Origin: a virus
DNA: 36,899 nucleotides
Strand: one strand, 5' to 3'
IMG/VR virus record: IMGVR_UViG_3300045988_033662
Span: 1-36,899 of that record
Positions 1 to 36,899 of the stretch are shown in pieces; within the stretch, counting starts at the first letter, position 1; every line of letters begins with the position of its first letter. Both the position numbers and the translations under genes were made by a program. The notes under the pieces were generated by a model. That model was not told where the DNA came from. It ran no database searches and worked only from the letters and a program-made list of their open reading frames with translations.

Positions 1-119
1 TCTTTTTTTCTTTAATGCTAATGGTAATAACAAAATACCAACTGCAAATGCAAATCTAATAACTCCAAATGAACTCCATAATTGAAGCATTCCCATTTTA
101 ACAAATACTCCAAATGCAA
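1..119. repeat. Terminal direct repeat copy 1: 119 bp identical to 36781..36899 (circular-closure overlap)
   Basis: Compared both ends base by base and the strings are identical. The repeat sits exactly at both window termini and lies inside one continuous minus-strand reading frame. Confidence 0.95.
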
Positions 120-924
120 TACATAATAATAGTGAAAGTCCTGTTCCTATTTTCTTATTTCCTACTTCATGAAGTGCTACTGCAATACTATCTATTGTTG
201 ATGTAGTTACTCCAAGAACTGCTACTAATAGAATAATATGCATTGGTAGTGTAAATTTAAAGAAAGCCATTCCTAATATTAACAGCATATAAAGTCCAAA
301 TAAAAATGCTCCTAAATAATAACCTTTTTTACTTTCATCTGCTTCTGCTCTTTGCCAATGTTGTACATCTCCAATAGGTCCAGCAAATAAAATAAGTCCA
401 GACCATACTCCCCATAGCACACCACTCATGCTAGTTGGTGCAAATGCTTGTAATGGGGCTTTTGTAAATATTCCAACTGATATAATTACGATTATTGATA
501 CAATAGCAATGATCCATTGATATACATCTGTTTTAACTGATGTTGGTAGTCCTTTTTTGTAAACAATTAAAGTAAAGAAAAATCCTAATGCTATTGTTAT
601 CAAATATGCTGCAGTTGTACTACCTGTAATAATTAAAAATTGTTGATTGATAAAATTCAACTGAACTAATAAGCAAAATAATTGAATTATTAATGCTATT
701 ACTTTTACTTCTTTTCTATTATAAGTTTCTGGACTAATTTTTTTATTGTTATATAGCCATCCAAATAATGCAAGTGTTAAGGTATTACAAACAGCCCATA
801 TAATCCATGCGATTATACCTTTCTCTTGAGCTATTTGTTGTCCCATGATTAAAGATGTTCCCCAAGCCCAACTTGCAGCACTTGAAGCACCTATTCTTTT
901 AAAACTTAAGTTCTTATTTGTCAT
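1..924 (-). CDS. Polytopic membrane protein, transporter-like, 5' part. ATG at 924; continues across the junction into 36631..36780; 357 aa in total.
   Basis: Hand translation from ATG 922..924 gives MTNKNLSFKRIGASSAASWAWGTSLIMGQQ... with no stop down to base 1. It is in frame with track ORF 36631..36876 ((924-96)/3 is an integer). About 10-11 hydrophobic segments. Missing from the ORF track only because it runs off the window edge. Confidence 0.75.
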   Translation of the reverse strand, partial: MTNKNLSFKRIGASSAASWAWGTSLIMGQQIAQEKGIIAWIIWAVCNTLTLALFGWLYNNKKISPETYNRKEVKVIALIIQLFCLLVQLNFINQQFLIITGSTTAAYLITIALGFFFTLIVYKKGLPTSVKTDVYQWIIAIVSIIVIISVGIFTKAPLQAFAPTSMSGVLWGVWSGLILFAGPIGDVQHWQRAEADESKKGYYLGAFLFGLYMLLILGMAFFKFTLPMHIILLVAVLGVTTSTIDSIAVALHEVGNKKIGTGLSLLLCIAFGVFVKMGMLQLWSSFGVIRFAFAVGILLLPLALKKKR

Positions 925-1340
925 TTTTATCTCACTCTCATTTTCAAGCCATCACATGATGCTTTTATTTAATTTAAGGCCTTTTTTTAGCCAATTTCTC
1001 CGACTTTGTTATCAGCAAGTCTAATAGTCAACAGCTTCATCATTGTTTCACGGATTGTTCTCGTAATGAATTAAGTCATCGACTTTCTTATAAATGATAT
1101 TGATTCTCTTGTTTCACATTTTCATTCCCTTCCTTTCTTATATCGCCCGCTCATGTTCCACGTGGAACACTTTCGCATGATTTTCGCTTCTTTTTGAAAC
1201 AAAAAACGGCTTATACTCACATTATAGCGTTAATTTAGCCGTTTTTCCAAAAAATCTTTGTATTTTATTATTTTTGTGTTCTTGCGTATCAGCGTTTCAT
1301 CTTACTGTCACACCAGACCATGCTCATTACCACGGGCGGG
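925..1340 (-). promoter_or_regulatory. 416-bp non-coding region between HNH and the membrane-protein gene; candidate cos/packaging site plus promoter and long leader
   Basis: No ORF longer than about 18 codons. Perfect 14-bp palindrome GTTCCACGTGGAAC at 1155..1168. G+C-rich motifs at 1144..1150 and 1333..1340. Minus-strand TTGGAA (1245..1250), 18 nt, TATAAT (1221..1226). Hairpin arms at 1202..1211 and 1237..1246. Near-copy of the cassette palindrome at 1186..1201. Confidence 0.3.
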
Positions 1341-1721
1341 TTATTTCAAACTGTCTATTCTCTGCATAGCTAACTTAATTAAATACTCTTTGTCAATCAT
1401 TCCTGCATCAGCCATCCTGTGACAGTCTTTGCATAAGCATATAAGGTTATCATCTTCCAACCATAGCTCTGGCTTGTCTTTCAGCTTCTCTATGTGATGT
1501 ACCTCGACATTTCTGTAGTTGTAAATACCTTTGTCCTTGCACACTTCACATAGATAGTTTGCATCCTCTCTAATCTGCTTGCTCTTCTCTGTCCATGCAC
1601 TCTTGCTTCTCATCCTTGACTCTTTGTAACTGTACTTGTATCGCTTCTTTTCTGCCTTGCATACATACCCTTTCGGATGTATCTTCCCGCACCTGCTACA
1701 AGAATAATAGCCTTGTGCCAT
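1341..1721 (-). CDS. HNH homing-type endonuclease (terminase-associated HNH of cos phages)
   Basis: Cys pairs CSRCGK...C, EVHHIEKLKD and NLICLCKDCH form an HNH/zinc motif. ATGA-type overlap with the endolysin stop. Confidence 0.85.
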   Translation of the reverse strand: MAQGYYSCSRCGKIHPKGYVCKAEKKRYKYSYKESRMRSKSAWTEKSKQIREDANYLCEVCKDKGIYNYRNVEVHHIEKLKDKPELWLEDDNLICLCKDCHRMADAGMIDKEYLIKLAMQRIDSLK

Positions 1722-2755
1722 TACTTAACTCTGATACGCTGTCCAGCACGAATCTTATTCGGATTAGCAATACCGTTCATCTGTGCTAAATGCTGATATG
1801 TTGTTCCGTATTTAGAAGCAATACCACTTAATGTATCGCCACGTTTAACAGTATAATATACTGCTTTACTTGCTTTATTAGAATTCATCAGTTTACTAAC
1901 AATTGCTTGTATTGCAGTGTAGTTATATCCTGCTCTTGTTAAACGCTGTTTGCGATCATCGCCATTGCCCCACTTTCCTGCAATGACTTCCTGTGCAATC
2001 TCTTCATTAGATTTCTTTGCAAGCTTTGCATTCACTGCGTTCTGAACAGCATTGTAATCATATCCTGCATCGGTTAAGCGTTTCTTTCTGTCAGTTCCAT
2101 TACCCCACTGACCCGCAATCACTTCCTCAGCAATCTGATCAATTGGTTTTGGCTGAGGTTGTGTTGTGTTACCTCTTGAATATCTTGAAAGGTCTGCATA
2201 CATTACATTCTTGTCTAATGGCTTAGAAGTGTACTGTTGTAATGTGCCGTATTGGGAAGTGTTTGTATGCTGTGATCCATCATTCTTGCCCCAATTAGCC
2301 ACCCATTTGTCGAATCTGTCATTTAAGCCTTTTACATACTGAAGCCATGAACTAGAAGTGTAAATACCAGAATAATATCCTGCGTCTTCAATCATTTTGC
2401 AGAACTTATAACAAATAGGTGCAATAGTTCCATTTGAGAACTTAAAGCCGTGTTTCTTTTTATATCCATCTGCATCTTCCATATCGAACCATACGCCAAC
2501 CTTGATATCGTTCTTATATTTTGCAATTGCATTAAGCACTCCTCTTGCTTCTGCTTCTGCTTCTGCTTCATTCAGTGCATATGAATAATGATATACCCCA
2601 AATGGAATGCCTAGCCTTTTGCACTCGTTCACGTTTCTTTCAAATTTTTCGTCTAAATGAAAGTGGCCATAACCAACACGAATAATTACGAACTGCCCTT
2701 TATATTGTTCTAAATTAATATTGCCGTTGTGTTTTGAAATATCAATACCGTACAT
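1721..2755 (-). CDS. Endolysin: GH25 muramidase + two CW_7 (Cpl-7-like) repeats + C-terminal LysM
   Basis: N-terminus MYGIDISKHNGNINLEQYKGQFVIIRVGYG is GH25-like. Two repeats IA(E/Q)EVIAG(Q/K)WGNG(T/D)DRK(K/Q)RLT.AGY.Y. C-terminal YYTVKRGDTLSGIASKYGTTYQHLAQMNGI is LysM-like. Confidence 0.85.
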   Translation of the reverse strand: MYGIDISKHNGNINLEQYKGQFVIIRVGYGHFHLDEKFERNVNECKRLGIPFGVYHYSYALNEAEAEAEARGVLNAIAKYKNDIKVGVWFDMEDADGYKKKHGFKFSNGTIAPICYKFCKMIEDAGYYSGIYTSSSWLQYVKGLNDRFDKWVANWGKNDGSQHTNTSQYGTLQQYTSKPLDKNVMYADLSRYSRGNTTQPQPKPIDQIAEEVIAGQWGNGTDRKKRLTDAGYDYNAVQNAVNAKLAKKSNEEIAQEVIAGKWGNGDDRKQRLTRAGYNYTAIQAIVSKLMNSNKASKAVYYTVKRGDTLSGIASKYGTTYQHLAQMNGIANPNKIRAGQRIRVK

Positions 2756-3117: not shown

Positions 3118-3345
3118 TTATTTCACCTTGTTATAGTTTGCTGAGCTTACCTGTAAACATGCACCAATGCAAGTACCAATTGCCGAAATAGTTCCTGCAA
3201 TAGCTTCTGCATAACTCCATCCCCAGATTTTGCCGAGCGTGATAATTAACACTGAAAATGCGTTCGTTCCAACAAGTGCAACCCACTTTAGAATGTCATA
3301 TGTTTTATTAGAAAATACCATTTTTTTGCCCTCCTTTACTAACAT
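3118..3345 (-). CDS. Holin with dual-start motif (ATG 3345 and ATG 3321)
   Basis: 75 aa with two hydrophobic segments, immediately upstream of the lysis genes. Two in-frame starts are 8 codons apart (MLVKEGKK-MVFSNK...), each behind its own duplicated SD string (gagggcaaaaaaATG / ggagggcaaaaaaATG). Confidence 0.6.
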   Translation of the reverse strand: MLVKEGKKMVFSNKTYDILKWVALVGTNAFSVLIITLGKIWGWSYAEAIAGTISAIGTCIGACLQVSSANYNKVK

Positions 3346-16260: not shown

Positions 16261-16451
16261 AAATGTTTCTGATTGAAACCATCTGTCGAAAAAAAAGAGT
16301 TGTCTAACTCATACTCAATTTTGAGATCTTCCTGTTCAGCATAAAGATTAAACAGCAAAGAATAGAAACTTTCAGCGTCCATATGCTCACCGCCTTTCAA
16401 TGGCTAGTATGGACTGCTTTTTTTATTTTCAATCAATCGGAGGTATTTTTT

Positions 16452-17786
16452 ATGAGAAAAAAACTGCGAGTGGCAGGATATGCTCGTGTTTCAACAGATG
16501 AACAAAAAAAATATGGTTACTCAATACAGGCACAAATTGACGAAATAACGCAATGGTGCAACGACAACGACCATGACTTACTACATATCTACATTGATGA
16601 AGGCTACTCCGCAAGCACCATGAAACGCCCGCAACTGCAATCCATGCTGTCAAACTTGAAAAATCTTGATGCCATAGCTTTCACACGCCTTGACCGTTTA
16701 TCACGTAACGTCCTTGAAGCAAACAAGATGCTTGAACTTCTTCAGCAAAACAATGTCGCCATGATTTCCATTTGTGAGGACGATATAAACACGTCCACTG
16801 CAAACGGCTTGTTCATGTTCAACCTAAAAGTCAACCTTGCAGAACATGAATTAAAAAAAGGCTCTGAACGCATCAAAGCCGTATTTGAATACAAGATTGC
16901 ACAAGGCCAACCTATCACTGGCAATGTTCCTTTTGGTTACAGGATTGCCACGGAAAACGGAAATAAACGCATTGTGATTGATGAATCCAAAGCACCAATA
17001 GTGAAAGACATTTTCGCATCATTTCTCCTGCATCAATCAGTCCATTACACTGTCGAATACGTCAACAAGAAATACGGCCTGTCTAGACCTTACATGTCAT
17101 ATATGCACATACTAAAAAATGAATTTTATGCAGGATCATACCGAGGGAACTCCAACTACGCCGAGCCATACATCACGAAAGAAACATACAATGCCGTTCA
17201 GACCGCATTACAAGCCAACATACACACGGGAATACAGCGCCATACATATTTATTCACTGGACTGTTAAGATGCCCAGAATGCCGCTCTAAGCTTGTTGGA
17301 GTGAGCCATCCAAAAGGTGGCAAGCGATATTATTACTATAGATGTAACAATGCCCACTCGGTGCATACATGCACGCATAAAAAGCACTATGCGGAACTTG
17401 CAACGGAAAAATATCTGCTGTCTAACCTTGACGATCTTTTGAAAAACCATATAGCCACAATATCAAGCATCACTTCTGAAACAAAGAACACAACTGAAAA
17501 GGAATTAAAAGAACTAAGAAAAGAACTTGATAATCTGAATTATATCTTCATTAAGAAGCGTATGCCTGTAAGTACCTATGAACGTCTATATGCAGAAACG
17601 GAAGACAAAATAAAAAGGCTTGAATCTTTCAAGCCTCAAAGTACTGATCATCTTAATCAATTTTTGAACAGCGGTTGGCGCTCAATATATGAGAACCTCA
17701 CACGTGAGAACAAGCGCACGCTGTGGCGCAATGTCCTTGAATCTGTCCATGTTTCACCTGATGGAATAGAAGTTTTCTTCAAGTAA
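16452..17786 (+). CDS. int: Large serine recombinase (integrase)
   Basis: MRKKLRVAGYARVSTDEQ is a resolvase-type catalytic Ser region, followed by a recombinase domain. Zinc ribbon CPECRSKL...YYYRCNN...C and a C-terminal coiled coil. ATG 16452 follows GGAGG; the track ORF start at 16383 is upstream read-in. Confidence 0.9.
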   Translation: MRKKLRVAGYARVSTDEQKKYGYSIQAQIDEITQWCNDNDHDLLHIYIDEGYSASTMKRPQLQSMLSNLKNLDAIAFTRLDRLSRNVLEANKMLELLQQNNVAMISICEDDINTSTANGLFMFNLKVNLAEHELKKGSERIKAVFEYKIAQGQPITGNVPFGYRIATENGNKRIVIDESKAPIVKDIFASFLLHQSVHYTVEYVNKKYGLSRPYMSYMHILKNEFYAGSYRGNSNYAEPYITKETYNAVQTALQANIHTGIQRHTYLFTGLLRCPECRSKLVGVSHPKGGKRYYYYRCNNAHSVHTCTHKKHYAELATEKYLLSNLDDLLKNHIATISSITSETKNTTEKELKELRKELDNLNYIFIKKRMPVSTYERLYAETEDKIKRLESFKPQSTDHLNQFLNSGWRSIYENLTRENKRTLWRNVLESVHVSPDGIEVFFK

Positions 17787-32259: not shown

Positions 32260-33957
32260 TTAAATCATCTGGAATGTGAAGTCACCTTCATTCAAGAAAT
32301 AATCCTGTTCTAGAAGGTAAATCGCATTGATAAGTGATACAACCATATCAACCTTGCCGTTGCTCTTTTTCTTGCTAACATACATATTTTTGTTGGTATC
32401 ATAAGCACATTTAGCATTCTGATAATTGATTTCAAGAAGTTTGTTCTCTGTGTATTTGAATTTCTGTTTAAGTATTGCTTCTTTCATCCTCTTTGTCGGA
32501 GAATGCAAGACGCTTGAATACTGCTTAATCTGAACTGTGTTATATCCCTCATTTGCGAGTTTCTGCGCTGTGCTTAATGCATTCCATCTATCGTATCCAA
32601 TCGCCTGTATTTGTACGTTATAACGGCTCTCAAGGCTCAAAATGAACTGCTCAACAAATGCATATGAGATAACTCTGTCACCACACGCAATCACCTTTCC
32701 ACTCTTCAATAGTTCTTGATAGTTCACACGTTCTGATATTGTTTTCTCTGTGATTCTGTCTGATGGAATGAACGCAAAACTTTCTGCAAGAATGTTATCA
32801 TCATCATCTACAGAAACCATGGCAACAGATGTATTATCGTTTGATTCTGAAAGGTCAACACCTAAATATACGACTCTGCCGTTCCAGTCAATGTCTGCAA
32901 CCTTGCACGCCTGAACATCCTTAACATCAATAAACGTTTCAGTTCCTTGTCCTTGATAAATGATATTGCAGTGCTTTGTGACGAAGTTCTCTCGCTCGTT
33001 CTCAATAGCAATGGCTCTGGCTCTTTTCTTTACAAGATCATCCCAAATTTCAGGGATTTCCAATGATGCAGGATTCGCCTGCTTCAAAACAAGATTGTCT
33101 GTTTCCCAGTCTGATGTTTTGTCTGGCTCATATAGAAGTGCAAAAATAGTATCGTCTTTCTCGATGCCGTCAAGAACCTTCTTGGCATATGCAACCTCGT
33201 CCTCGAAAGGATTGTCGATTGTCGGATATTTTGTACTGATAATGAACCCTAGTTTGTTGACAACGTTAAGCTGTCCTGATCGCATCGCTTCGACAGGATA
33301 ACCGTTTGGCAATGCTCCAACTTCATCTGCGATAAATGCATTCGGCATACGTCCGTCCATACGGTTGTTACTGTATGCAAGCGGTATAAGCATGTTTTCA
33401 TTCGGTTTGAATTTGATATAGTCCCTTAACAGTTTAAAACGCTTCGTCCCTTTATATTCATAAATAAGCGGACTGCTTTTTATTGTATCTGAGATTGCCT
33501 CTTTTATCTCTCTCGACAATGCACCATCTGGCGCAACTGAAAAGAACTTTGAGAACTTTGGTTCAGTAAGAAACAAGATAATAAAGATTGTCCCGACCGT
33601 GTACGTTTTAAAATTTTTTCTACAAATTTCCAACAGCCCTGTCTCATATCTGCGCTTTTTCGGCTTGTCACGATATACAGTGCATAGCATGGCTGTATAT
33701 ATCAACCACTGATACCCCGTAGCGCACTTATACATAGACTGTCCTGCTTTCAATCCTTTTGGCATGATAAGCAGTTTCAGAATATTTTCAATCTGCTGAA
33801 CCTTCTTTTCAGATACAAAGTACTTTGCGTTTTTTCCTTCTGCAATCTTCATCCAGTCTCGCATCTGTTTTTTGACGTATCTCGGTGTGGTTTTCTTTCT
33901 AACAGATTTTTTGCAATATTCGTAAGCCTTACTGCTCGTCACCGCCATCATCATCAC
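32260..33957 (-). CDS. terL: Terminase large subunit
   Basis: 565 aa with a Terminase_1-type N-terminal ATPase and C-terminal nuclease region. Overlaps the TerS end. Confidence 0.85.
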   Translation of the reverse strand: MMMMAVTSSKAYEYCKKSVRKKTTPRYVKKQMRDWMKIAEGKNAKYFVSEKKVQQIENILKLLIMPKGLKAGQSMYKCATGYQWLIYTAMLCTVYRDKPKKRRYETGLLEICRKNFKTYTVGTIFIILFLTEPKFSKFFSVAPDGALSREIKEAISDTIKSSPLIYEYKGTKRFKLLRDYIKFKPNENMLIPLAYSNNRMDGRMPNAFIADEVGALPNGYPVEAMRSGQLNVVNKLGFIISTKYPTIDNPFEDEVAYAKKVLDGIEKDDTIFALLYEPDKTSDWETDNLVLKQANPASLEIPEIWDDLVKKRARAIAIENERENFVTKHCNIIYQGQGTETFIDVKDVQACKVADIDWNGRVVYLGVDLSESNDNTSVAMVSVDDDDNILAESFAFIPSDRITEKTISERVNYQELLKSGKVIACGDRVISYAFVEQFILSLESRYNVQIQAIGYDRWNALSTAQKLANEGYNTVQIKQYSSVLHSPTKRMKEAILKQKFKYTENKLLEINYQNAKCAYDTNKNMYVSKKKSNGKVDMVVSLINAIYLLEQDYFLNEGDFTFQMI

Positions 33958-34303
33958 CTCCGTTAATGATATTCATAAGCGTGTCTGCATCCTCGGTTGT
34001 ATCACTTACATTATAATTTTTAATGATCTTCATTAGAGTTGCGACTGTTCTATTTGCACTATCTGTTGTTGCATTATAATCTTTTACTGCTGGACTAGAA
34101 TATAAATTTTTTCTGCCCTTGACATATTCTTTTTCAACTAATATTCCATCCTCTTTTATAGATTTTTCTAATTCAAATAACATAACTAATTGCATTTGGT
34201 ATCTTTTGAAAGTGGTTATAAAAAAGTAATTACTTTGTACTCCACTTTCTTCTGCAATTCTTAAAATTTCTTGTGCTTGTTCGGTTAAAGTCATTTTTGC
34301 CAT
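33929..34303 (-). CDS. terS: Terminase small subunit (P27 family-like)
   Basis: 124 aa, ...FFITTFKRYQMQLVMLFELEKSIKEDGILVEKEYVKGRKNLYSSPAVKDYN... Sits directly upstream of TerL. Confidence 0.7.
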   Translation of the reverse strand: MAKMTLTEQAQEILRIAEESGVQSNYFFITTFKRYQMQLVMLFELEKSIKEDGILVEKEYVKGRKNLYSSPAVKDYNATTDSANRTVATLMKIIKNYNVSDTTEDADTLMNIINGGDDDGGDEQ

Positions 34304-34325: not shown

Positions 34326-34877
34326 TTACTTGAAATTTTTTATTCGATATGATTTGTTATAAGTCTTTTGGTCCTTAATCATCATTTTTAAAAAATCTTC
34401 TCTTGTGAAATCAGATAATCTAAATACTTCTTCTGGCTTCATTCCTAATTCCTTACATATTTCTTTTGTTGATTTTCCTTCATCTAATAATTCTTTTACA
34501 ATTGCTTTCATTGGTTCTAATAAATGAGTTCCCCTTGCTCTATTATGTGTAATAGTTCCATAAACATCTTCTGCATGATCTTTATGGTCTACAATAACAA
34601 CTGGAACTTTATTTTTTAATAATGTTTTTAATGGTTCTCTGCCTGATACAGTCCATCTATGAAAACCATCTATAATTGTATAATCAGGTCTTATAACTAT
34701 TGGCATAGTCCAACCATTTACTAATATAGACTGAACTAATAATTCAAGATTTTGTTCTGATACTTTATTTGGGTTGTAATTATTTGGTTTTAATAAATCT
34801 CTATCAACAAATTTAACATTTTCTAAAGGTTCTAATATATTTTTATTTTCATATTTTTTCATTTCATTTTCTTTCAT
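34326..34877 (-). CDS. IbrB-like ParB/Srx-fold protein
   Basis: LKPNNYNPNKV...IIDGFHRW...THNRARGTH motifs of the IbrB-type ParB-like nuclease domain. ATG 34877 follows GAGGTG; the track start at 34883 is GTG. Confidence 0.6.
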   Translation of the reverse strand: MKENEMKKYENKNILEPLENVKFVDRDLLKPNNYNPNKVSEQNLELLVQSILVNGWTMPIVIRPDYTIIDGFHRWTVSGREPLKTLLKNKVPVVIVDHKDHAEDVYGTITHNRARGTHLLEPMKAIVKELLDEGKSTKEICKELGMKPEEVFRLSDFTREDFLKMMIKDQKTYNKSYRIKNFK

Positions 34878-35967
34878 TTCCACTCACCTCAGATACATAC
34901 ATAAATAACTGCATGTCTAACGCTCTTAATGCTCTTCCTTTGGGGTCTCCACCAATTACTATATTACATAACTCTTTGTAATGTTTTTGATTTAAAAATG
35001 GTCCATATTTAATTAATATTCTATTAATTAGTTTTTTTACATTCTGCATAGGTTTATTATCAAATCTCCATTCTTCTTTTAACATCTCAAAGAATTTATT
35101 CTTATAATCAACTTCTTCATCTTTCTTTGCTTGTTTATTTTTCTTTTGTCTTCTAAATAATTCAGTATCATAATAAAGCATTGCCATATAAGCATTTGGC
35201 TCTCTTTTACAAATCTTATCAAATAGTTCTGGATAGAATTCACACATCTGAGTTAAACTTCTAGCAGTATCTATACTAAAGAATTGGCTTATTCTTAATC
35301 TATTAATTGGAACTCCTACTTGATACATGAATTTATAGGCATCTGGGAATTCTAAGTTATTATCTCTTATATACATCCAGACGTCTTTATCAGTCCAGTC
35401 ATATATAGGAAACATTTTATCTTGTTCTTTTCTTGTTGCTAAATTCATCATTCTTTGAACACTTTCACTTACTCTAACGCCAATTACTGTTACACAATTT
35501 TTATTTTTTTTATCCATGAACCTTTGATAGGTATCATGTCTTTCATCAAGTAATGGGTCATTTGTAATTGCGAATTTTGGTTTTTGTCTTATCCAAACAT
35601 CTTTTTTAGTTTCATCCCAACAAATAAAACTTTCATCATTCGTTAATTGATTAAAGCAATTATAATGCTTTACCTGAATACACCACCAATTAAAAGGTAC
35701 TCCAATACTCAGCCATTGTAATCTCATGCTTTTAACTTGTTTTTCTACACATGGGAATATTGCTTCTTCGTCTATAAAGTCAACTATTAATTTTGATTTG
35801 TCTATTTCTCCACTTTGACACATTTTAAATATTAAATCATTTAAGCAAATGCTATCTTTACCACCGCTTACTGATAATTCAATTCTACTAGCAGTTTTAA
35901 ATATATTTTTTATTCTTATCTTAGCCATAGTTACAACATCAATGTTTGAGTATTGTTTTTTAATCAA
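34864..35967 (-). CDS. IbrA-like PP-loop ATP pyrophosphatase (PAPS-reductase family with DUF3440-like C-terminal region)
   Basis: PP-loop SVSGGKDS near the N-terminus, ...VIGVRVSES... and 367 aa. The start is TTG 35967 (behind GGGGAG) or ATG 35928. Confidence 0.65.
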   Translation of the reverse strand: MIKKQYSNIDVVTMAKIRIKNIFKTASRIELSVSGGKDSICLNDLIFKMCQSGEIDKSKLIVDFIDEEAIFPCVEKQVKSMRLQWLSIGVPFNWWCIQVKHYNCFNQLTNDESFICWDETKKDVWIRQKPKFAITNDPLLDERHDTYQRFMDKKNKNCVTVIGVRVSESVQRMMNLATRKEQDKMFPIYDWTDKDVWMYIRDNNLEFPDAYKFMYQVGVPINRLRISQFFSIDTARSLTQMCEFYPELFDKICKREPNAYMAMLYYDTELFRRQKKNKQAKKDEEVDYKNKFFEMLKEEWRFDNKPMQNVKKLINRILIKYGPFLNQKHYKELCNIVIGGDPKGRALRALDMQLFMYVSEVSGNERK

Positions 35968-36583
35968 GATATATCATCTCCCCACAAGAAGGACATATAA
36001 TATATTTCTTCTCATTTTTTTCTGCACCGACTTTTGTTTCCGTTACCATTGTTACTGGATCATTTTTAATTTCTGGTTCTTTTTTAATTTCTGGTTCTTT
36101 ATAACTTGTTTCTTGTTTTGGCTCTTCTTGAATAAATTTAGTATCTGTTATAGTGCCATAATTTTTTATTGCTTCTTCAACTTGTTCATCCGTTGCAGTC
36201 ATTTGCTCCAAAATAAACTTGTCATAACCAGCGATTTCAAAATCTCCTATTCCAGTTATCTCTTGAATATAATTATTTATTTCATTGTAATCATCTGCAC
36301 CTAAGCCATATATTTTATTATCACTTAAAATTAATTTTTTCTTCTCAATTTCTGATAGTCCTGTTTTTCTATAACATTGAACATCTGTTTTATTCATTTT
36401 TACTAAAGCAAAATATAAACCATTACCAATTAAGATATTATTATCTTCATCAATAACCATTGCTCTTGTCTGCCCAAACTGTTCTACACTTTTAATTAAT
36501 TCATCAATTTGTTTATCATTATGTTTTCTGACATTTTTCTCCAATGGTTTTAAATCACTTAATTTTACTACTTCTAATTTCAT
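35960..36583 (-). CDS. ParB N-terminal-domain protein with C-terminal CxxC zinc-ribbon-like end
   Basis: LKPLEKNVRKHNDKQIDELIKSVEQFGQTRAMVIDEDNNILIGNGLYFAL is ParB/Srx-like. Tandem EPEIK(K/N) repeat from an 18-nt duplication (36064..36097). Ends ...YIICPSCGEMIYLD. Confidence 0.6.
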   Translation of the reverse strand: MKLEVVKLSDLKPLEKNVRKHNDKQIDELIKSVEQFGQTRAMVIDEDNNILIGNGLYFALVKMNKTDVQCYRKTGLSEIEKKKLILSDNKIYGLGADDYNEINNYIQEITGIGDFEIAGYDKFILEQMTATDEQVEEAIKNYGTITDTKFIQEEPKQETSYKEPEIKKEPEIKNDPVTMVTETKVGAEKNEKKYIICPSCGEMIYLD

Positions 36584-36630
36584 CTCATTTTCCTACTTTC
36601 TAAAAATTCTCTAGCACTTGTTAATCTTTA

Positions 36631-36899
36631 TTACAATGCTTTTACTGATACATAACCAAGTATTATTGTTGCTATCATAAAACTTATAACTCCAACAATT
36701 GAATTAATTGTAATTTGTCCTAAAGTTGCAAACAATACCATTAGTCCAAATGTTATTGCTGATACTGGAATTACTATATTTCTTTTTTTCTTTAATGCTA
36801 ATGGTAATAACAAAATACCAACTGCAAATGCAAATCTAATAACTCCAAATGAACTCCATAATTGAAGCATTCCCATTTTAACAAATACTCCAAATGCAA
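36631..36899 (-). CDS. 3' part of the junction-spanning membrane protein (see 1..924)
   Basis: Track ORF 36631..36876 is in frame with 1..924 through the 119-bp overlap. Confidence 0.75.
   Translation of the reverse strand, partial: AFGVFVKMGMLQLWSSFGVIRFAFAVGILLLPLALKKKRNIVIPVSAITFGLMVLFATLGQITINSIVGVISFMIATIILGYVSVKAL
36781..36899. repeat. Terminal direct repeat copy 2
   Basis: Identical to 1..119. Confidence 0.95.

Follow-up and report, generated by a model that had tools for sequence, protein, structure and literature searches.

What are a PP-loop enzyme, two ParB-fold proteins and a membrane transporter doing between the cos region and the terminase genes of a phage? The question is raised by IMG/VR record IMGVR_UViG_3300045988_033662, whose whole stretch of 36,899 nucleotides was analysed here and is called the window. 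The window is a complete circular phage genome in which HNH/cos and terS are separated by four genes, all on the minus strand, a layout that an original prediction had described as four extra genes between cos and TerS and that our gene calls confirm. We find that this block occupies a slot that sister phages fill with known or predicted DNA-modification systems, that the module recurs next to terminase genes across bacterial phyla, and that two of its genes belong to the IbrA/IbrB family. We place about even confidence in reading it as a mobile operon of the IbrA/IbrB type that modifies DNA with the help of ParB proteins, probably for anti-restriction or anti-defence.

A foreign island between cos and terS

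In minus-strand order, the locus contains the following features:

1721..1341, minus strand: HNH endonuclease (Pfam HNH 3.9e-8, phrog_144 1e-21), left flank of the cargo slot, kept in all relatives
925..1340: non-coding gap of 416 nt between HNH and the membrane protein
924..1 joined to 36780..36631, minus strand: membrane transporter, 357 amino acids, first island gene
36583..35960, minus strand: second ParB-like protein (ParB-CxxC), 207 amino acids, phrog_620
35967..34864, minus strand: IbrA-like PP-loop enzyme, 367 amino acids, PAPS_reduct, phrog_2302
34883..34326, minus strand: IbrB-like ParB protein, 185 amino acids, ParB_N, phrog_2159
34303..33929, minus strand: terS, small terminase (phrog_13845 4e-47), right end of the exchanged block
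33957..32260, minus strand: terL, large terminase, right flank, backbone common to all relatives

The four island genes have a foreign composition, with 28.2% GC against 37.9% in the rest of the genome, where same-size windows stay at 32.0% or above. GC content at third codon positions is 13-20% in the four genes and 22% in terS, against 30-50% in their neighbours. The low G+C content that the original prediction had attributed to this tract is therefore real, and all five of its 60-nt counts are exact.

Bases 1-119 of the window recur at 36781-36899 as an exact 119-bp direct terminal repeat. Since this repeat closes the circle, features that cross the window ends must be joined without the duplicate, and the true circle with the end duplicate removed is 36,780 bp. 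The transporter is encoded by 308 N-terminal codons at 1..924 (ATG at 924) and 49 C-terminal codons plus the stop at 36631..36780, and the corrected 357-residue protein is 98% identical to a metagenomic protein cluster. An earlier join of 36631..36899 to 1..924 had counted the 119-bp duplication twice, which breaks the reading frame, and has to be replaced by 36631..36780 with 1..924.

The slot and its contents in sister phages

A search with TerL yielded 80 relatives, many of them 93-98% identical in TerL; L-numbers label loci throughout. Some relatives have an empty slot, with only 192-425 bp between HNH and terS (L064, L068, L074, L079, L081; TerL 72-74% identical), and in these the basic HNH-cos-terS-terL layout of HK97-like cos phages is found. 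Such loci support the earlier view of the four genes as an inserted cargo block. The HNH protein on the left flank is 89-94% identical in close relatives, whether the island is present or absent.

Where the slot is filled, its contents include this four-gene island, a five-gene version of it, and deletion derivatives of the island (L013, L026, L027, L035). The alternative cassettes, all of which include a ParB-N protein of their own, are DNA-modification systems, known or predicted: a ParB-N6/N4 methyltransferase fusion in L009; a ParB protein with a TET-associated glycosyltransferase (TAGT; PF20691, 6.6e-36) and a UDP-galactopyranose mutase (2.8e-75) in L010, L022 and others; and, in L030 (4039-7645) and also L037, a ParB(CxxC) protein with DpdA-like, QueC (5e-55), QueD, QueE and FolE proteins.

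One further feature of the window bears on how the island arrived:

1021..1125, minus strand: ParB pseudogene relic, all that is left, in decayed form, of the 5' end of a TAGT-cassette ParB gene, with the left recombination junction at about 1024

The relic translates as MKM, stop, NKRINIIYKKVDDLIHYENNP, stop, NNDEAVDY, stop, to be compared with the L010 ParB N-terminus MENKKMNIVYKKVKDLIPYENNPRNNDEAVDY. Nucleotide homology (blastn) with L010 ends at 1024, inside the first 32 codons of the L010 ParB gene; with other relatives it ends at about 1153. Because the window keeps this stop-riddled 5' relic of the cassette's ParB gene, the island must have replaced a cassette of ParB, TAGT glycosyltransferase and UDP-galactopyranose mutase.

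The module is also dispensable and turns over quickly, as natural deletion and disruption derivatives occur. These derivatives (L013, L026, L027, L035, L097, L098) come from the same metagenome as intact copies, and examples include transporter codons 1-57 fused directly to ibrB and internal deletions of ibrA.

The alternative cassettes have features of their own. The cassette of ParB, TAGT and mutase lies at 4954-7670 in L010 and is also present in L011, L022, L043, L044, L053 and L063, and the cultured L. delbrueckii phages c5 (L039) and phiLdb (L040) carry ParB and TAGT. A TET/JBP dioxygenase is absent from the three-gene cassette, whose pairing of TAGT with UDP-galactopyranose mutase hints at DNA glycosylation of a galactofuranose type. 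L030, with a TerL 94% identical to that of the window, has a complete 7-deazaguanine cluster; its ParB protein ends with CPYC, and about 110 of its N-terminal residues are nearly identical to the ParB part of the L009 ParB-methyltransferase.

The right-hand boundary of the exchanged block takes in terS. TerS is 92-97% identical in all carriers of the island or its remnants and 60-84% identical in all others, while TerL stays at 93-98%. Followed along the locus, island carriers are 90-100% identical throughout; in island-less relatives identity is 55-78% over the whole of terS and rises to at least 88% where terL starts and beyond. This step in identity lies at about 33960 and falls at the 29-nt overlap of the two genes (33929-33957), which means that the recombination junction coincides with the terS/terL boundary. 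An earlier suggestion that the DNA-recognition end of terS had come with the island is thus borne out more strongly than it was made, for the whole of terS and not its 5' half only. Each type of cargo has its own terS allele, and the most economical account of the association is simple physical linkage in a recombination hot spot.

Beyond this boundary, the window TerL is 93-99% identical to that of close metagenomic relatives and 76-77% identical to those of the L. delbrueckii cos phages c5, LL-Ku and phiLdb. Hints as to the host diverge: the TerL backbone resembles that of Lactobacillus delbrueckii phages, and the closest island proteins in genomes are those of uncultured Clostridia. Some relatives have a split terL, with TerL residues 1-30 followed about 620 bp later by residues 2-565 (L016, L017, L019, L031), or residues 1-123 followed about 1.07 kb later by residues 118-565 (L043-L045, L053, L054). 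These inserts of about 0.6 kb and 1.1 kb, at two positions, are probably introns, inteins or homing-endonuclease insertions; the window terL has no insert.

Recurrence of the module beside terminases

IbrA/IbrB-type homologues number more than 2,000 and occur in 223 cultured-phage records and in prophages of three bacterial phyla. An IbrA-family search led to 80 viral loci, and transporter homologues led separately to a JGI contig (L003) with a fifth gene. With hidden Markov models (HMMs) of the module families, built from the viral loci, we scored 129 distant loci, comprising 49 informative viral and 80 bacterial-genome loci.

The order transporter, second PAPS-reductase-like gene (PAPS2), ParB(CxxC), IbrA and IbrB is found in 31 of the 49 distant viral loci whose sequence extends far enough upstream, and the four-gene form in 9. 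Among the 80 bacterial-genome loci, the five-gene order is seen in 59 (61 with two split or duplicated transporter reading frames) and the four-gene form again in 9. The hosts of these prophages are Lachnospiraceae, Oscillospiraceae and C. difficile among the Clostridia, together with Bacteroidales and Treponema. The first large downstream reading frame encodes TerL in 41 of 43 distant loci and belongs to at least four terminase families, such that the position before the terminase is kept on different backbones.

The full module therefore usually has five genes, and the window is without PAPS2. That the genes form a system, as the original prediction held, agrees with their co-occurrence in the cultured Faecalibacterium phage FP_Taranis and in most of the 129 loci; its count of four genes does not hold for the module at large. 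GKDS is present in 37 of 39 PAPS2 proteins. PAPS2 proteins of the phrog_424 type have 406-467 amino acids in L128 (3954-5354) and L143 (4137-5354), where about 200-250 extra residues at the N-terminus give no match in Pfam. Two or three tandem IbrA/IbrB sets occur in L105, L106 and L102, one of them beside a ParB-N6/N4 methyltransferase, and modification modules thus appear to be stacked there. At the DNA level, a search of cultured phages with the island gave only a 413-bp, 70%-identical match to ParB in Riemerella phage PJN03.

The module proteins

The PP-loop enzyme matches Pfam PAPS_reduct (PF01507) at 41.7 bits against a cut-off of 22.5 (E 1.6e-10) and phrog_2302 at 2e-74. Its family profile aligns with annotated E. 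coli-phage IbrA over 249 columns with an hhalign probability of 99.8% (E 3e-28), and annotated IbrA is also matched by tblastn (2e-23). The adjacent IbrB-like protein is 37% identical to E. coli-phage IbrB (E 3e-29), which together with the IbrA alignment upholds the earlier assignment of the pair. The enzyme consists of an N-terminal PAPS-reductase-fold domain and a helical C-terminal domain, and the TTG start at 35967 is favoured for its gene because the N-terminal extension is kept in homologues. SGGKDS is kept in 69 of 71 IbrA homologues, and the invariant residues include SGGKDS, C60, C91 and C103. An AF2 model (pLDDT 82.7) gives Foldseek matches to PAPS reductase, TilS, NcsA and LarE, with 2e21, 1ni5 and 6scy among the top matches; a PDB sequence search with IbrA gave no significant match.

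The hhalign alignment reaches only about 50 residues into the DUF3440 region of IbrA, and DUF3440 (PF11922) has no Pfam match at E<=0.01 in the window, Taranis or PJN03 proteins; the comparison IbrA proteins score 5e-33 (E. coli phage) and 6e-52 (S. thermophilus phage). Of the families to which the original prediction had looked, PAPS_reduct and ParB_N were thus recovered by profile search, and DUF3440 and a direct library match for the transporter were not.

Several better-known memberships were tried for the enzyme and rejected. A true CysH or CysD is not supported by the curated models (TIGR00434 24.5 bits against a cut-off of 165, TIGR02057 22.3 against 254, NF002537 21.6 against 154, NF003587 29.8 against 195), whose matches are local and cover about 35-50 residues, and the ECGLH-type C-terminal catalytic motif (ECG[LI]H) is absent from the enzyme sequence. 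DndC/SspD membership fails for want of a match in PADLOC or a dndC match in NCBIfam, and BrxP gives only a local PADLOC match (24.5 bits, 1.8e-6, residues 141-200 of a 779-position model). Among the genes flanking the module there are no DndA/D/E, Ssp or BREX partners. The parallel once drawn with DndC/DndB and type 4 BREX, if taken as membership, thus fails these profile tests.

The IbrB-like protein matches Pfam ParB_N (PF02195) at 32.5 bits against a cut-off of 26.3 (9e-8) and phrog_2159 at 2e-70. It has DGFHR and HNRARG motifs and a C-terminal helix-turn-helix (HTH), for which the HTH_Tnp_1 match is weak (0.0023); among its homologues DGxHR is kept in 69 of 69 and HNRARG in 67 of 69. Its sequence matches in the PDB are Spo0J/ParB and 1vk1. 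A partition ParB was rejected for this protein (TIGR00180 36.8 bits against a cut-off of 58.45), TIGR00180 has no match to the second ParB protein, and no ParA was found among the proteins examined around the module, the remaining window proteins not having been profile-scanned. DndB membership was likewise rejected: at E<=0.01 the DndB/DGQHR models of NCBIfam and PADLOC have no match to either ParB protein, and the likeness to DndB is confined to the short DGFHR motif of IbrB.

The second ParB protein matches phrog_620 (1e-34), phrog_498 (the ParB domain of phage methyltransferases, 1e-23) and the N-terminal region of PADLOC MTase_II (4e-11). In place of GHxR it has a degenerate NTP motif, GNGLY, and GNGL[YHFL] is found in 46 of 66 homologues. 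An acidic, lysine-rich linker leads to a C-terminal CxxC that is present in 66 of 66 distinct homologues, 59 of which have just 2-3 cysteines in total. A full zinc ribbon was rejected on the single CxxC and the total of 2-3 cysteines. Since the homologues mostly hold so few, this CxxC would form half a metal site and not a zinc ribbon; the description of this protein as a ParB with a zinc ribbon was right as to the fold and wrong as to the ribbon, of which there is one conserved CxxC.

The window transporter has no match in the Pfam, PHROG, NCBIfam or PADLOC HMM libraries, and a tblastn search of cultured phages with it found nothing. Its AF2 model (pLDDT 87.8) has the SSS-family protein CHT1 as best Foldseek match, followed by ApcT, AdiC, SGLT (SGLT2) and NIS, at E values of about 1e-4 and TMq up to 0.68. 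Longer homologues from the transporter-family HMM (455-510 amino acids, same operon position) match Pfam SSF (PF00474) at 1e-16 to 6e-25, and the window protein is about 100-150 residues shorter than these. Judged by its model, the protein is likely a divergent LeuT-fold relative of the sodium:solute symporter lineage. This agrees with the earlier description of a transporter-like membrane protein, and the leader of about 300 nt once placed before it measures 416 nt.

The leader and neighbouring genes

The 416-nt leader is made up of a region kept in all relatives (1340..1154), the ParB relic (1125..1021) and about 100 nt specific to the island. It and the genes beyond it contain these further features:

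1290..1340 (approximate): candidate cos region, GC-rich (CCCGCCCGTGG...)
1221..1250, minus strand: sigma-70-like promoter match TTGGAA-18-TATAAT (10/12 matches), upstream of the cargo and terminase genes
2755..1721, minus strand: LysM endolysin, directly before HNH
3345..3118, minus strand: holin, upstream of the endolysin in minus-strand order

We place cos between HNH and the cargo because the shared landmark TTTTTTGGAAAAA puts the left end of the Lactobacillus phage c5 (L039) genome at about 1297; the cos-proximal region is the same in relatives with and without the island. The number of sigma-70-like sites is not above shuffled expectation, which makes the promoter match weak evidence. Terminator-like sites are absent within the island, terminator scan counts being at or below shuffled expectation, and the island genes overlap or abut one another, all of which fits co-transcription of the island with terS and terL. 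A riboswitch or leader RNA in 925..1340 was rejected, as Rfam gives no gathering-threshold match in the whole window, and a sensitive scan of 800-1500 returned only chance-level matches (E >= 0.37).

The holin and LysM endolysin end the early/replication block right before HNH/cos and do not directly follow the tail genes. A large serine recombinase/integrase at 16383-17786 on the plus strand (phrog_95 4e-113) is the sole long plus-strand gene, and its presence makes it probable that the phage is temperate.

Discussion

We favour DNA modification as the function of this module because the slot in sister phages holds DNA-modification cassettes and because there are published precedents for ParB-fold proteins in such systems. 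The slot cassettes likewise lend support to DNA modification or anti-restriction as the original prediction had framed it; for its further idea of coupling between packaging and late genes, only gene position speaks.

TilS and TtuA/NcsA adenylate a base carbonyl, and an amine or sulfur then displaces the adenylate. On the same pattern, the IbrA-like enzyme would spend ATP on adenylating a DNA oxygen. This might belong to a base carbonyl, the kind of group that TilS and TtuA/NcsA adenylate in tRNA, or to a backbone phosphate, the target proposed for DndC, and a nucleophile, sulfur or an amine, would displace the adenylate. Candidate chemistries would include thiolation, phosphorothioation and a lysidine-like amination through the adenylated intermediate. 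The two ParB-fold proteins might bring the PP-loop enzyme to double-stranded DNA and activate it: IbrB has intact DGxHR and HNRARG motifs and an HTH, and the CxxC of the second ParB protein could allow dimerisation through a shared metal. The symporter-like transporter might import the group to be attached, or its precursor, and chemistry by adenylate displacement would make sense of an imported substrate. As the genes sit just past cos and overlap or abut up to terS/terL, the module is probably produced along with the packaging proteins, and the DNA would be modified before or during packaging.

A bolder version of this proposal, which we think possible though doubtful, is that the module represents a new class of DNA hypermodification in which a symporter-imported molecule, or sulfur, is installed on bases or backbone by PP-loop adenylation, with two ParB proteins as DNA-loading activators. 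If so, a DNA modification that has not been described would occur widely among the gut prophages of Clostridia, Bacteroidales and spirochaetes, and the 20-year-old IbrAB phenotype would be a side effect of DNA modification.

Several observations weigh against DNA modification. Systems that modify DNA do not usually include a transporter. The enzyme failed the profile tests for DndC, SspD and BrxP, and neither a cysteine desulfurase nor a DndD/E-like partner is encoded nearby. The IbrA/IbrB pairs of E. coli phage PhiR5_2 and of S. thermophilus phages are not beside the terminase and have no transporter, such that the extended module may differ in function from the plain pair. We know of no biochemistry of IbrAB, including any modified base, and the case for a DNA target therefore rests on gene context. 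Finally, the one experimental finding on IbrAB that we know of is genetic: in E. coli ECOR-9 it reportedly activates prophage eib genes (Sandt et al. 2002). Activation of eib points to transcription, though an indirect effect could explain it.

This last point is the root of one alternative, in which the module is a co-activator of late-gene or prophage transcription: IbrB would bind near late promoters, IbrA would carry out an enzymatic step, and the packaging/late operon would be switched on. The homology to annotated IbrA and IbrB is real, IbrAB has been described as an activator of prophage eib genes, the module heads the terS/terL operon in 41 of 43 loci, and in Taranis it lies just after a RinA-like activator. 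Yet sister phages with TerL 93-98% identical are without the module or have broken copies, so it cannot be required for late expression; the replacements in the slot are DNA-modifying enzymes and not regulators, and it is difficult to see why a transcription factor should come with a transporter and as many as two PP-loop enzymes. We consider such a role quite improbable. An effect on packaging itself, with the ParB proteins and the enzyme helping terS/terL to recognise or process cos DNA, would account for the position upstream of terS/terL across at least four terminase families and for the complete linkage of the island to one terS allele in sister phages. However, related phages package with an empty slot or unrelated cargo, the cos-proximal region is unchanged with or without the island, and the other types of cargo are likewise each linked to a terS allele of their own, as physical linkage would predict; a packaging accessory is in our judgement very unlikely.

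It is somewhat easier to imagine that the PP-loop enzymes act on something other than DNA, such as a protein, a nucleotide, a second messenger or an RNA (tRNA included), with the transporter supplying a substrate and with host takeover or anti-defence as the outcome. Among the closest structural matches are TilS and NcsA, which modify tRNA, and the cofactor sulfur transferase LarE, and the ParB/Srx fold includes kinases such as SerK (NCBIfam 3e-5, PDB 1vk1) and sulfiredoxin (PMC12704722). We nonetheless regard a non-DNA target as unlikely, because the alternative slot cassettes all act on DNA, IbrB keeps its HTH, and the second ParB protein resembles the ParB domain of DNA methyltransferases (phrog_498 1e-23). 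The remaining alternative, a set of sulfur-assimilation auxiliary metabolic genes (AMGs) in which a true PAPS/APS reductase or ATP sulfurylase and a solute importer boost host sulfur metabolism, is the only one that we consider close to excluded. It agrees with the PHROG category 'moron, auxiliary metabolic gene' of phrog_2302 and phrog_424 and with published labels of 'host metabolism' or AMG (PMC11318856; PMC10434257). But the CysH/CysD scores are far under curated cut-offs over about 35-50 residues, the ECGLH-type motif is absent, and the gene is obligately flanked by two ParB-fold proteins and is homologous to IbrA, not CysH.

The DNA-modification proposal matters in the first place for annotation. 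Prophage genes of this kind are listed as 'host metabolism' or AMGs (PMC11318856; PMC10434257), and IbrA/IbrB genes routinely carry the label 'PAPS reductase - host sulfur metabolism' or else 'co-activator of prophage gene expression'. A DNA-modification reading would correct such labels and offers a concrete lead on what this widespread family does. The interchange of the module with 7-deazaguanine, methyltransferase and glycosyltransferase cassettes leads to a testable idea, ParB-assisted DNA modification with an imported substrate, for which the cultured phage Taranis and prophages of C. difficile and Lachnospiraceae are tractable systems. If the idea is right, it would add a new anti-restriction chemistry and a new class of partner for the ParB-CTPase fold, and possibly DNA-labelling enzymes. 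Given the linkage of terS to cargo, one may also ask whether each small terminase suits the modification state of the DNA that it recognises.

Comparison with known systems

Full-text searches of the literature turned up neither functional work on phage IbrA/IbrB or the five-gene module nor a characterised equivalent, in agreement with what had been claimed before. The IbrA/IbrB pair is known as a family; in the papers searched we found no description of the operon with a transporter, of the fixed site before the terminase or of the interchange with Dpd, methyltransferase and TAGT cassettes.

A cultured counterpart is Taranis, in which gp35-gp38 repeat the four-gene order of the window ahead of terS/terL. 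Identity to the window proteins is 22% for the transporter (E 2e-11), 34% for ParB-CxxC (gp36), 37% for IbrA and 67% for IbrB (gp38). Taranis differs in having another backbone, an unrelated terS, a GpA-type TerL and two small genes between IbrB and terS, and its genes have been annotated singly and not studied as a system. The Escherichia PhiR5_2 and S. thermophilus Moineauvirus IbrA/IbrB genes are a homologous adjacent pair with SGGKDS and a DGxHR ParB fold plus HTH. To this plain pair, in which DUF3440 is detected, the window module adds a transporter, a second ParB protein with CxxC and, in most relatives, a second PP-loop gene, whereas its own enzyme has no Pfam match to DUF3440.

For TilS and TtuA/NcsA, the likeness is one of PP-loop fold and, by analogy only, of mechanism: these enzymes act on tRNA, are 13-14% identical, and have other C-terminal domains and partners. 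DndB/DndC, and also SspD and BrxP, resemble the module in pairing a PAPS-reductase-fold PP-loop ATP pyrophosphatase with a DGxHR-type ParB protein in a DNA-modification context (PMC12839542; PMC11662687). They differ in that the window has no DndC/SspD/DndB profile match and no DndA, DndD or DndE near the module, and, compared with phosphorothioation systems, the module is phage-borne, unpaired with a restriction component and equipped with a transporter.

The nearest precedents for the proposed role of the ParB proteins come from other DNA-modifying enzymes. A phage ParB-like protein is needed for a DNA thymine dioxygenase (5mYOX176/ParB176) to act on double-stranded DNA, and clusters of ParB with DNA-modifying enzymes often neighbour terminases (PMC13229309). 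DpdB and DndB are the ParB-fold partners of DpdA and DndC in the Dpd and Dnd systems (PMC12839542), and ParB-methyltransferase fusions are enriched in phages (PMC12704722). Like 5mYOX176/ParB176 and DpdA/DpdB, the module sets a small phage ParB-fold protein beside a putative DNA-modifying enzyme. Unlike them, it is a predicted system, its catalyst would be a PP-loop ATPase and not a dioxygenase or transglycosylase, and it has two different ParB proteins. In gene context, the module agrees with this class of ParB-assisted DNA-modification systems, as it occupies the same locus as the methyltransferase, Dpd and TAGT cassettes.

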